DNA from: an uncultured delta proteobacterium
Lineage (GTDB): Bacteria > Desulfobacterota > Desulfomonilia > Desulfomonilales > Desulfomonilaceae
DNA: 64,000 bases
Direction of reading: 5' to 3'
Assembly: GCA_963789265.1 (NCBI GenBank)
Contig: CAWBKB010000001.1
Location: 1,760,001-1,824,000 of the forward strand
Under the pieces are notes generated by a model. It saw nothing but the letters and a program-made list of their open reading frames with translations. It did no database searches and was not told the origin of the DNA. Position numbers and translations under genes: made by a program. Below, one piece after another: positions 6,942-45,670 of the stretch (positions within the stretch are counted from its first letter, which is position 1; each line of letters begins with the position of its first letter).

Positions 6942-7235
6942 AGTGCTGCGGGGGCCGAGTGATTTCGGGCAATACTCCACCGCTGAGAATTTTGTTTTCG
7001 ATGCACGTCTATCCGGTGGACCACACCAAATTCTGCTCTGCGACAGTCAAGGCTACACCGGCTTGGCGATACGCTCTGATGACTCGGACCAGTGCGCCAT
7101 CAAGCAAGTGACAATCCCCGCGAGGCTATGGTGGGGCATCCCGCGTTCCGCGGGATCACCCCGGACTTCGATCCGGGGATGTAGGGGCCGACCTTGTGTC
7201 TGCCCTCTTTCGGGCACCCACGAGAGGTGCCCCTA

Positions 7236-9130
7236 GTGCGCCTGCGAGCGTACCTAATCAGAGAGGTGCAAGTCCTCTCCAGGTCCACGCTACAGCCTGT
7301 AGCCGCCTGCAACTGCGTCGCTGCGAGGCGGGGTGGAGAGCAGCAGGGGGCGAACGACCAGTCCGTAGGCTGACAAACCCGTTTCGGCCGGGTGTTTTCG
7401 GCGAGCCTGCTAGGGAAAGGTGAAGCCTGGACGTATCTCCTGAGGCCTGAGTCGCCGGAACGCGACAATACACGGTACAGAGGTACGAGATCTGTTGCGC
7501 TGACAAACAAAGTGGCGGAAGGAAAAGCGACAACAGAGGAACACAAGGTGGTTAGGGACGGAATGGTCAGGAAGGTTGAGTACGTGAAGCAGGGAGACCT
7601 GTACGCCGGGAAGAGGCGTACAGGAGTCAGAGCCCCCATAGTAGCGTCGAGGCGCCGTAATGGGCGCGGAGCCAAGGGGGGCAGGGAGGTGGATACGTGG
7701 GTATCAGACAAGAGGAGGAGAAACCGACTCCAGTGTGCCGCGCTGTGTGCGGAACTAAACCGGCCGGAGAGACCCGAGACCGATGGTCCTGGGTTGAACC
7801 TAGTGTCTGGACAAAACGTATGTTGACGGCCCTGGAAAACGGGGTGAAAGGCGGCAAATGGTACAGCCTGATGGACAAGGTCAGCTCTCCGACGAACCTT
7901 AAGAGCGCTTTTGCCACGGTGAAAGCGAACAAAGGGGGGCCGGGCGTCGACCATCAGACCATCGAGATGTTCGAGTCCCGACTCGAAGATAATCTTAGGC
8001 TTTTGGAAGAGAGTCTTCGGACGGGAACGTACCGGCCTCAGGCCATCAAAAGGGTTTGGATACCCAAACCCGGAACGGCGGAAAAACGACCGCTGGGCAT
8101 ACCCACGGTTCGTGACCGCGTGGTCCAGGCCGCGTTGCGCAATGTTTTGGAACCGATATTTGAAAAGGACTTTGCTGTCCACAGTTACGGGTTTCGTCCG
8201 GGCTGCGGCTGCAAGGACGCACTGCGACGAGTCGATGCCCTGCTTCGCCAGGGCCATGTCTTTGTCGTGGATGCGGATCTCAAGTCCTACTTTGATACGA
8301 TTCCCCATGATCCTCTCATGGCCCGGCTTCGGGGAAAGCTTGCCGACAAGCCTCTCTTGGACCTCGTGGAGTCGTTCCTGCGTCAACGGGTAATGGATAC
8401 GATGGAGTGCTGGACTCCCGAGACAGGTACCCCCCAAGGGGCTGTCCTGTCTCCACTGCTCTCCAACATCTATCTTGACCCCCTTGACCATCTGATGGCT
8501 GGACATGGTGTCCAGATGGTGCGGTATGCCGATGACTTTGTGATCCTGTGCCGGACGGAGGGGGAGGCGCATATTGCGCTGGCTCTTGTTCAGGACTGGA
8601 CGACCACGGCCGGTCTGAGTTTGCACCCCACCAAGACCCGGATCGTCGATGCGACCGCCCGAGGCGGATTCGATTTTCTGGGTTATCACTTTGAGCGGGG
8701 TATGCGATGGCCTCGGCCCAAGAGTCTCCGGAAACTGAAAGACACTCTCCGAGCCAAGACCAAGCGCACCAACGGTCACAGTCTTTCGGCGATCGTCTTG
8801 GATGTGAACCGAACCCTCGGGGGCTGGTTTGAGTACTTCAAACACAGTCATTACACGACCTTTGCTCCACTGGACGGCTGGATACGCATGCGTCTGCGCA
8901 GTATCTTGCGCCGCCGGCGTGGCGGCTCCGGCCGTGGCCGAGGTGTCGATCATGTCCGCTGGCCCAATGCTTTCTTCGCCGAACATGGGTTGTTCTTCCT
9001 TGCCACAGCCTATCGTTTGGCCGGTCAATCCGCCCAGCGGTGAACCACCAACCGGAGAGCCGTATGCGGGAGATCCGCTCGTACGGTTCGGAGGGGGGAG
9101 CGCCGGGTAACCGGTCGTTCCTACCCCTAT
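7236..9130 (+). mobile_element. Group II intron (IIB-like, AGC triad, no endonuclease domain)
   Basis: 5' GTGCG; domain V GAGCCGTATGCGGGAGATCCGCTCGTACGGTTC (9057-9089); domain VI ending CCTACCCCTAT; RT ORF inside. Confidence 0.92.
7697..9043 (+). CDS. ltrA: Group II intron reverse transcriptase/maturase
   Basis: RPLGIPTVRDRVVQ, SYGFRPG, GTPQGAVLSPLLSNIYL, RYADD, FDFLGY, X domain; SD GGAGGT before GTG; no HNH domain. Confidence 0.95.
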   Translation: MGIRQEEEKPTPVCRAVCGTKPAGETRDRWSWVEPSVWTKRMLTALENGVKGGKWYSLMDKVSSPTNLKSAFATVKANKGGPGVDHQTIEMFESRLEDNLRLLEESLRTGTYRPQAIKRVWIPKPGTAEKRPLGIPTVRDRVVQAALRNVLEPIFEKDFAVHSYGFRPGCGCKDALRRVDALLRQGHVFVVDADLKSYFDTIPHDPLMARLRGKLADKPLLDLVESFLRQRVMDTMECWTPETGTPQGAVLSPLLSNIYLDPLDHLMAGHGVQMVRYADDFVILCRTEGEAHIALALVQDWTTTAGLSLHPTKTRIVDATARGGFDFLGYHFERGMRWPRPKSLRKLKDTLRAKTKRTNGHSLSAIVLDVNRTLGGWFEYFKHSHYTTFAPLDGWIRMRLRSILRRRRGGSGRGRGVDHVRWPNAFFAEHGLFFLATAYRLAGQSAQR

Positions 9131-9381
9131 CAATTGATGCCCGCGGTCGCGGGCATGACGACATGTAAGGGCGGGTTTGGAACCCGCCCCTACCGGTAAC
9201 ACGATGTCACTTGTTTAAAAGCGAATCGGTATCACACCGCACTGAATAAGCTATCCTATTTCTCTGCGTTCCCTGTGCATCCCGCGTCTTGCGACACGGT
9301 GATCCCGCGTTCCCCGCTGGATTGATTGCCCGGTGAACAGTTACGATTTTGGTTTGCCGGCAAGAGGGCCGCGTTTCTCCA

Positions 9382-34919: not shown

Positions 34920-35323
34920 ATACCAGTGCGCCATCAAACAAGTAACAATCTCCGCGAGGATATGGTGGGGCATCCCGCGCGGAACGCGGGACTGCCTGCC
35001 ATTCGTCACCCCGGGCTCCGATCCGGGGTCCAGTCTGGATGCCCGCGTACGCAGGCATGACGACAGGCAATCACGCCCGGGCGCATAGGCGTTAATTTAA
35101 GGCAATTTCGTTCCTTTTCAAGAGGTGAATGCAGGCCGAGGGCGATCAAAGTCCCCCTTTTTTAAAGGGGGATTTAGGGGGATTTTCAATGAGTTATCCG
35201 AAAATCCCCCCTGGCCCCCCTTTACGAAAGGGGGGAATAAATCGTTAACTTAACGCCTATGTGCCCCCGGCGGGACTGTCCTGCCAGAAACACGCTGTCT
35301 CTTGCTTGAAAACGAATCGGTAT
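34920..35323 (+). mobile_element. MITE family B copy 2, containing a nested family C element
   Basis: ATACCAGTGCGCCATCAAACAAGT / CTTGCTTGAAAACGAATCGGTAT ends. Confidence 0.75.
35084..35261. mobile_element. MITE family C copy 2
   Basis: TIR CATAGGCGTTAA / TTAACGCCTATG; same cargo type as 29043-29219. Confidence 0.75.
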
Positions 35324-45470: not shown

Positions 45471-45670
45471 AAACCAGTGCGCCATCAAACAAGTGACAAT
45501 CCCCGCGAGGACAAGGTGGGGCATCCCGCGCGGAACGCGGGACCGCCCAGGGCGAATGCCATTCGCCCCTACAGATGCCAGCGTACGCGGGCATGACGAC
45601 ATGTAGGGGCGGGTTTGAAACCCGCCCCTGCCAGAAACACAGTTTCACTTGTTTGAAAATGAATCGTTTT
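45471..45670 (+). mobile_element. MITE family B copy 3 (intron-free)
   Basis: ACCAGTGCGCCATCAAACAAGTGACA..TCACTTGTTTGAAAATGAATCG; REP hairpins with intact CCCCTAC at 45566-45572. Confidence 0.75.

Follow-up and report, generated by a model that had tools for sequence, protein, structure and literature searches.

Positions 7236-9130 (+ strand) of a 64,000-nucleotide (nt) stretch of DNA from an uncultured delta proteobacterium, which we call the window, are occupied by a complete group II intron, and the question raised by this locus is how such an element chooses where to insert. The intron is 1,895 nt long with a 5' GUGCG and a 3' CCUAU, and it splits a GTAG...CTAC repetitive extragenic palindromic (REP) module at CCCTA|C, the bar marking the insertion site. 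GTAG-type REPs, which are associated with REP-associated tyrosine transposases (RAYTs), are short multicopy intergenic palindromes with a GTAG 5' foot, and the module formed by 7181-7235 and 9131 fits these features, with 20 other copies in the genome. An earlier note on this DNA had proposed that the intron homes into such REPs through exon-binding site 1 (EBS1), which pairs with intron-binding site 1 (IBS1) at the end of the 5' exon. Our analysis supports a broader reading, which we consider likely: an intact, probably mobile intron without an endonuclease, belonging to a lineage found in many phyla, finds its targets by a stem-loop, an EBS1-IBS1 pairing of 5-6 base pairs (bp), and an EBS3-IBS3 pairing, with no EBS2. 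Because a second copy lies in another hairpin repeat and all 70 insertion sites that we compiled lie behind differing stem-loops, REP homing is a special case of stem-loop, IBS1, and IBS3 recognition.

The sites were drawn from 79 loci encoding relatives of the intron-encoded protein (IEP; 54-81% identity) and three plasmid records (53-54%), with intron ends located by nhmmer, and the final set contained 70 distinct insertion sites and 53 distinct intron sequences. Every one of the 70 sites lay just 3' of a GC-rich stem-loop. Folded as DNA, the 30 nt upstream had an energy of -4 or lower at all 70 sites and of -6 or lower at 55, with a mean of -8.3. The last paired base fell 0-7 nt before the site in 69 cases and 11 nt before it in one, with a mode of 3 nt (25 sites), and the stem ended 2-5 nt before the cut in 55 of the 70. 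For the first 57 sites, energies of -6 or lower were observed in 46, compared to 84 of 1,140 control windows taken from the same loci (Mann-Whitney p = 1e-31), and the 30 nt downstream resembled the controls (mean, -2.7). The stem sequences were unrelated, even for one intron: five sites in a single Acidobacteriota genome (L012, L014, L015, L016, and L079) presented four stems, and the two copies of the window intron sit behind different hairpins. The possibility that the hairpin is part of the intron was excluded, as hairpins differ between copies; because empty sites retain it, the hairpin is a property of the target rather than of the intron.

The main rival to stem recognition is survivorship, whereby introns insert wherever IBS1 and IBS3 fit and only copies behind harmless intergenic hairpins, such as REPs and terminators, persist, so that the hairpin acts as a filter rather than as a recognition element. 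In bacteria, group II introns are described as residing mostly in intergenic or mobile DNA (Gomes 2025), and hairpin repeats are abundant in this genome, both of which agree with such a filter. However, survivorship leaves the short fixed distance between stem end and cut unexplained, and none of the 70 sites, across 32 different EBS1 sequences, was a hairpin-free intergenic site. We therefore regard survivorship as unlikely.

In the window, the exons and the intron elements implicated in target pairing are the following.

7181..7235, + strand: 5' exon, a two-hairpin GTAG-type REP module (by sequence and its 20 unoccupied copies in the genome)
9131..9193, + strand: 3' exon, with C9131 as IBS3 and more REP modules behind it
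7400..7427, + strand: Id3 stem-loop with EBS1 (by covariation, compensatory helix changes, and the RNAalifold consensus)
7551, + strand: EBS3, the parenthesized G in GGUG(G)U, which pairs with the exon +1 base C9131
7288..7293, + strand: tentative alpha sequence CGCUAC, complementary to a tentative alpha' GUGGCG at 7512-7517

The 5' exon opens with GTAGGGGC at 7181-7188, which occurs 399 times in the genome, and its second hairpin pairs GGGCACC (7212-7218) with GGTGCCC (7226-7232) and is followed by CTA (7233-7235). Two nt of IBS1, CCCTA at 7231-7235, thus fall within the stem, whose last paired base precedes the insertion point by 3 nt; the 30 nt upstream have a DNA fold energy of -7.6. The 3' exon carries a hairpin at 9137-9156 in a flank repeated many times in the genome, followed by GTAAGGGCGGGTTTGGAACCCGCCCCTAC at 9165-9193 (GTAAGGGCGGG...CCCGCCCCTAC), an unoccupied REP module with CCCTA|C that ends in CCCCTAC at 9187-9193. 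The earlier note had placed the intron at these same boundaries in a REP doublet, with an intron-free counterpart at 45566-45579 and another intact foot at 9187-9193, and all of these positions were confirmed. The intron ends at 7236 and 9130 also agree with those of approximately 60 homologues.

We observed UAGGG at 7411-7415 within an 11-nt terminal loop, UGCUAGGGAAA (7408-7418), that is complementary to the CCCTA of the 5' exon. Across the compiled sites, this loop and the end of the 5' exon formed five of five pairs in 59 of 70 cases and four of five in the remaining 11, with 32 different EBS1 words, and six pairs were possible at seven sites. Covarying combinations of loop bases (after GC) and exon ends included GAUCC with GGATC, UGGGA with TCCCA, ACAUUU with AAATGT, GGAAC with GTTCC, and UCAUUC with GAATGA. 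The mean run of pairing with an intron's own exon was 4.79, compared to 3.39 after permutation of 57 intron-site pairs, and none of 200 permutations reached the observed value. Because of this covariation and the failure of permutations to match it, 7411-7415 is EBS1. The earlier note had assigned EBS1 to the loop at 7409-7417 and called for folding of domain I to confirm it as the Id3 loop. That assignment held: the 28-nt stem-loop at 7400-7427 is conserved, compensatory changes are seen in both of its short helices (one pair, for instance, is GC in 31, AT in 6, and TA in 1), and the hairpin is present in the RNAalifold consensus.

A single additional pair was evident at the first base of the 3' exon. 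EBS3 paired with IBS3 in 62 of 64 evaluable sites, as G-C in 53, A-T in 5, U-A in 3, and G.U in 1, with an A/A mismatch in 2; in eight sites (five A-T and three T-A), both partners were changed from the commonest G-C. No comparable signal was found for EBS2-IBS2: when exon positions -30 to -7 were compared with domain I of the same intron, the best Watson-Crick run was 6.11, compared to 6.10 after permutation, and 519 of 1,000 permutations reached it. Since domain I matched its own exon no better than it matched exons belonging to other introns, there was no sign of an EBS2-IBS2 pairing. Complementarity between alpha and alpha' occurred in the window and in relatives (TACGCT with AGCGTG; in L072, CGCCCT with AGGGTG), with the tentative alpha' in the terminal loop of the distal Id3 stem-loop; the motif is conserved, and permutation gave 6.75 against an observed 6.75.

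The same rule of stem-loop, IBS1, and IBS3 was obeyed on three plasmids of cultured Burkholderiaceae. In Paraburkholderia aromaticivorans and two Cupriavidus strains, the junction reads ACCGCGTCAGCGGT TTAGT|GUACG with ACUAAA as EBS1, and EBS3 is a U opposite a +1 A in two of the three records, the third (L088) having an A/A mismatch. These plasmid introns (L087-L089, positions 647-648) start with GUACG. A near-identical hairpin, ACCGCG(N)CAGCGGT, followed by TTAG, precedes both the Burkholderiaceae introns and a Phycisphaerales intron (L019, L021, and L022, positions 874-875). On one Acidobacteriota contig (L057), two copies of one intron, at 3-1784 and from 1943 onwards, lie about 160 nt apart, each with its own hairpin.

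We next considered what the copies and empty sites in this genome (G000; 6.06 Mb in 9 contigs) reveal about REPs as targets. The window intron has two copies, the second at C3:298750-300644 on the minus strand. They differ at 2 of 1,895 positions, one of which is a synonymous third-codon change when the frame is read by eye. Copy 1 is flanked by a mosaic of hairpin modules that recur all over the genome. Its joined exons matched uninterrupted DNA across the junction at 13 places, with C3:851230-851417 as the best match (94% over 189 nt). Among the 20 unoccupied copies of the copy-1 hairpin module, 19 read CCCCTA|C and one CCCCTA|A, and the intron-free site at 45566-45579 of the window reads GGGCGAATGCCATTCGCCCCTA|CAGATGCC. 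In the whole genome, a hairpin precedes 355 CCCTA|C sites, and GTAGGG lies no more than 70 nt upstream of 212 of these, a finding that bears out the suggestion of the earlier note that multicopy REPs offer empty targets. Composite REP arrays like the flank of the intron, with several hairpin modules in fixed order and resembling bacterial interspersed mosaic elements (BIMEs), also occur at 34930-34979 and 45481-45640 of the window.

Copy 2, in contrast to what homing into the REP family by EBS1 alone would predict, sits in a different repeat, behind GGCGGGCT-AGAA-AGCCCACC-TCA| at CCTCA|C, with no GTAG foot. The family of this repeat has at least 45 copies, with CCA|C in 38 and CTA|C in 3; three members carry a perfect CCCTA|C and are empty. 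This family (...GCCTGCCGGGGAAACCCCTGTTCAATGGCGGGCTAGAAAGCCCACCCCA|CGAAGCC...) is present in high copy number; its members lie at 45-80 of the window, at C3:300645-300700 next to copy 2, and in at least 45 other places. A comparison of flanks detected none shared by copies 1 and 2. Because of this, the idea of the earlier note that the intron may ride a miniature inverted-repeat transposable element (MITE) was without support, and we rejected it.

These observations bear directly on the proposal that homing into GTAG-type REPs is achieved by EBS1 alone, with the REP family itself as the programmed target. UAGGG does match the foot of GTAG-type REPs, in three phyla, it is the commonest EBS1 (19 of 70 sites), most of the hairpin-associated CCCTA|C sites have GTAGGG nearby as counted above, and full GTAG...CTAC palindromes were hit in three hosts, namely, the window, L027 (Kuenenia), and L042 (Cloacimonadales). 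However, GTAG is missing from the left arm of most UAGGG sites (L010, L004, L030, and L035, among others), and the 31 other EBS1 words all accompany hairpins of unrelated sequence. Furthermore, five bases plus one are too few to specify a REP, as CCCTAC occurs 1,792 times in the genome. We consider targeting of REPs by EBS1 alone to be quite improbable. REP targeting as proposed earlier is real, but as a general rule it proved too narrow. The earlier note had expected CCCTA|C REP feet when the flanks of other copies and homologues were tabulated, and had regarded non-REP sites without CCCTA as evidence against its view; such sites do occur, as CCTCA|C for copy 2 and as ATC|C, TCC|C, TGT|A, and TAG|T among homologues.

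Recognition by stem-loop, IBS1, and IBS3 suggests a mechanism with three elements. The first would be a GC-rich stem-loop ending about 3 nt (0-7 nt) upstream of the site, of which the shape and not the sequence would be read. The second would be an EBS1-IBS1 pairing of 5-6 bp, about 2 nt of which would lie within the 3' arm of the stem, and the third a single EBS3-IBS3 pair at the first base of the 3' exon. The ribonucleoprotein may locate the DNA stem-loop, which is probably extruded on single-stranded DNA at the replication fork; EBS1 would then pair from inside the 3' arm, EBS3 would check the next base, and reverse-splicing would follow. By analogy to group IIC introns acting on single-stranded DNA at the fork, we infer that the hairpin is recognized mechanistically. 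In the window intron, an EBS1 of UAGGG with an EBS3 of G spells CCCTA|C. GTAG...CTAC REP hairpins, which are abundant, have this word as their 3' foot, and REPs would therefore be natural and harmless landing sites. The intron is probably active, as suggested by the two differences in 1,895 positions between its copies and by an intact frame with a YADD motif.

Several points weigh against this reading. The hairpin is weak (-4 to -6) in 15 of the 70 sites, and the spacing between stem and site varies from 0 to 7 nt, with one at 11. Sites within one genome belong partly to the same repeat family and are not 70 independent events, the control windows were mixed coding and intergenic DNA, and base-shuffled upstream flanks of the 57 sites still reached -6 or lower in 97 of 570 cases. 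Approximately 355 perfect candidate sites are empty, and the genome contains only two intron copies; the few copies relative to the many empty sites may mean that activity is low or that a hairpin plus six bases is insufficient. The intron boundaries are predicted from homology and the EBS-IBS pairings. In addition, support for the lineage in the protein tree described below is only 85, and published class F introns are drawn with an EBS2-IBS2 pairing (Nagy 2013).

To place the intron among known classes, we compared its ribozyme and protein with published criteria. The features that bear on class are the following.

7820..9043, + strand: reverse transcriptase/maturase of 407 amino acids (aa) from ATG 7820 (by the open reading frame list, Pfam, and NCBIfam)
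9057..9089, + strand: domain V of 33 nt, with a distal stem of 4-5 bp, a 5-nt terminal loop, and the AGC triad at 9058-9060
9092..9127, + strand: long domain VI of about 36 nt (by the Rfam alignment and an alignment of relatives)

The IEP frame lies in domain IV, is open from GTG 7697 (448 aa), and encodes YADD. The protein matched RVT_1 (1.9e-39) and GIIM (7.6e-12) in Pfam and TIGR04416 in NCBIfam (367 bits; cutoff, 300), and these profile searches found no endonuclease domain in it. Rfam model RF00029 for domains V and VI matched 9055-9130 with 54.5 bits (gathering score, 40), and the presumed branch-point A is 9123, 8 nt from the 3' end. The ribozyme amounts to 548-671 nt, which is 1,895 nt minus the reading frame (1,224-1,347 nt). 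The AGC triad and the GAGAU-type pentaloop of domain V were kept in all 40 distinct 3' ends of relatives. The earlier note had likewise reported the AGC triad and an IEP without an endonuclease domain, and both were found; its deduction from the triad that the intron does not target hairpins was contradicted by the 70 sites of the lineage.

Group IIC introns are defined by a CGC triad, a distal domain V stem 2 bp shorter than in IIA and IIB introns, an EBS1-IBS1 of 3-4 bp, no EBS2-IBS2, a stem-loop in the place of IBS2, and an 11-nt epsilon' bulge with AGGAA (Toor 2006, PMC1702495). The window lineage shares with them the lack of an EBS2-IBS2 signal and the upstream stem-loop (70 of 70 sites), whereas the window intron has AGC and not CGC, a domain V that is not shortened, and an EBS1 of 5-6 bp. 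Its Ic1 internal loop has a 4-nt 5' strand (UAAC) and appears IIB-like, judged by eye only. In IIE and IIF introns, the terminal loop of domain V has 5 nt, alpha' caps a stem-loop in Id3, the ribozyme measures 450-700 nt, and domain VI is long (Nagy 2013); the window intron has the pentaloop, the ribozyme length, and the long domain VI, and it lacks the covarying EBS2-IBS2 of IIF introns (6.11 versus 6.10, as above). The ribozyme is thus IIB-like with IIE/IIF traits, and is not IIC. Since none of the Rfam D1-D4 models reached its gathering score on the window intron (best, RF01998 with 22.4 bits and RF02003 with 17.2 bits), there is no Rfam class assignment for it.

The protein provides a different perspective. 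Its nearest solved structures are IIC reverse transcriptases (6ar1, 6e-62; 7uim, 3e-59), compared to 5e-40 for the IIB enzyme 6me0. In a protein tree from a quick search, 64 lineage rows grouped together with a Shimodaira-Hasegawa approximate likelihood-ratio test (SH-aLRT) value of 85, apart from L094, a classical IIC reference, and three other introns, and the window grouped with Desulfomonilaceae and Thermodesulfobacteriota copies with a support of 99. L094, from a Lactiplantibacillus plasmid, combines CGC with a short domain V and a terminator that carries a T-run, and it matches RF02001 with 133.8 bits. That the window intron is a plain class C intron with a slightly unusual domain V would account for the upstream stem-loop, the absence of EBS2 and of an endonuclease domain, and the proximity of the IEP to solved IIC enzymes, and the Burkholderiaceae sub-lineage of L087 passes RF02001, as L094 does. 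Nonetheless, the defining RNA features of Toor (2006) speak otherwise, with AGC in place of CGC and an EBS1 longer than 3-4 bp. No T-run follows the stems, the L094 protein is only about 38% identical to the window IEP and falls outside the lineage in the tree, and L087 was the only scanned lineage member to pass RF02001, as the window and five other members do not match it. We find a plain IIC identity very hard to credit.

Among known systems, IIC introns (B.h.I1, O.i.I1, GsI-IIC, and E.r. IIC) are close to the window lineage. Like it, these introns encode an IEP without an endonuclease domain, insert behind a DNA stem-loop at a short IBS1 and IBS3 with no EBS2, and can use multiple hairpin sequences for one intron (PMC1702495), and they include the nearest solved relatives of the window IEP. 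What sets the window lineage apart is its AGC triad, a domain V of 33 nt that ends in a 5-nt loop, an EBS1 of 5-6 bp, a larger ribozyme (about 550-670 nt), and stems that are REP-like and GC-rich without a T-run. Hairpin targeting itself is known from IIC introns; here it is seen in a lineage with a different ribozyme, with REP feet as a special case.

The likeness to IIE/IIF introns (Ge.ur.I1, So.us.I2, Pe.th.I2, and c-Ku.st.I1) extends over the domain V pentaloop, the long domain VI, a ribozyme of 450-700 nt, an alpha' apparently in the Id3 terminal loop (tentative in our case), and an IEP without an endonuclease domain (Nagy 2013). The same four introns form the core of class F (Toro and Martinez-Abarca 2013), and Monachello (2016) used class F and g1 proteins as the outgroup in a tree of class C. 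Hosts overlap as well: class F is known from Kuenenia, Acidobacteria, and Geobacter-type Deltaproteobacteria (Toro 2013), and the lineage described here from Kuenenia, Acidobacteriota, and Desulfobacterota. Because of the IIE/IIF traits, the same kinds of hosts, and, indirectly, the nearness of the protein to IIC enzymes, assignment of the lineage to a class F type is plausible. In contrast to the window lineage, the published IIF introns are described with EBS2-IBS2 and ordinary homing, and the descriptions in Nagy (2013) on which we draw mention no upstream stem-loop; for the exons of Ge.ur.I1 and Pe.th.I2, they report tandem AUUCG motifs and mention no hairpin. In the same work, EBS2-IBS2 was found to be dispensable for splicing (Nagy 2013).

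Introns without an endonuclease domain are reported to prime from replication-fork strands (Zimmerly and Semper 2015, PMC4424553), and hairpin-guided insertion is credited to class C only in the reviews and recent papers that we consulted (Zimmerly and Semper 2015, PMC4424553; a 2021 paper in Mobile DNA, PMC7923331; Gomes 2025). In the literature that we surveyed, we found no hairpin- or REP-targeting lineage outside class C, although other papers, above all the one that defines class F (Simon 2008), may already mention one. An association of group II introns with REPs was found in that literature only as a count for Pseudomonas putida KT2440, in which two of the nine copies of the intron are associated with REPs (Tobes and Pareja 2006, PMC1525189). 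The KT2440 intron and REP-associated insertion sequence elements resemble the window intron in that multicopy REPs are insertion targets, but the association in KT2440 is presented as a count, without EBS-IBS or hairpin-distance analysis (PMC1525189).

A wider proposal, which we offer tentatively and with considerable doubt, is that targeting of structured DNA extends beyond IIC introns. A lineage of endonuclease-less, IIB-like (IIE/IIF-type) introns in many phyla, lacking EBS2, might read a stem-loop, a 5-6-nt IBS1, and a 1-nt IBS3; recognition might be carried by the protein and either predate the reduction of the IIC ribozyme or have arisen twice; and, in at least three phyla, UAGGG variants might have specialized on GTAG/CTAC REPs, which would serve them as a renewable landing pad. 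Stem-loop recognition would be protein-borne because the proteins of the lineage are near relatives of class C proteins. If true, a second hairpin-guided lineage, with a ribozyme that differs from IIC and is larger and a longer guide, would show which partner, protein or RNA, carries recognition of the stem-loop, and it would explain why EBS2 is dispensable in IIF ribozymes. It would also provide a targeting module of a hairpin plus six bases, more sequence-specific than IIC introns or tools derived from their ribozymes, and would mean that REPs, which are very abundant bacterial repeats, are systematically colonized by retroelements.

Other elements of the genome relate to these subjects. PF01797 (Y1 transposase) had six matches over the cutoff, for example at C4:127925-128263 and C1:92163-92501; they may include IS200/IS605 transposases, and some may be RAYTs that spread GTAG REPs. 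A third, unrelated group II intron is located at C8:72407-73501 (L084), with a protein 30% identical to that of the window intron and a domain I that matches Rfam RF02005 with 124 bits.

Finally, we examined four runs of DNA contigs, all from a single study of soil metagenomes. These runs contained no evidence of splicing and no usable joint of an empty allele, and the single candidate for such a joint (side 23, with 9 foreign letters) is probably a repeat artefact. One soil-metagenome contig spans 7149-9177. A contig of a close relative (run X4; depth, 2.1) carries G>C at 7414 and A>T at 7418 in the EBS1 loop, converting EBS1 to UAGCG, which hints that near relatives differ mainly in the guide.

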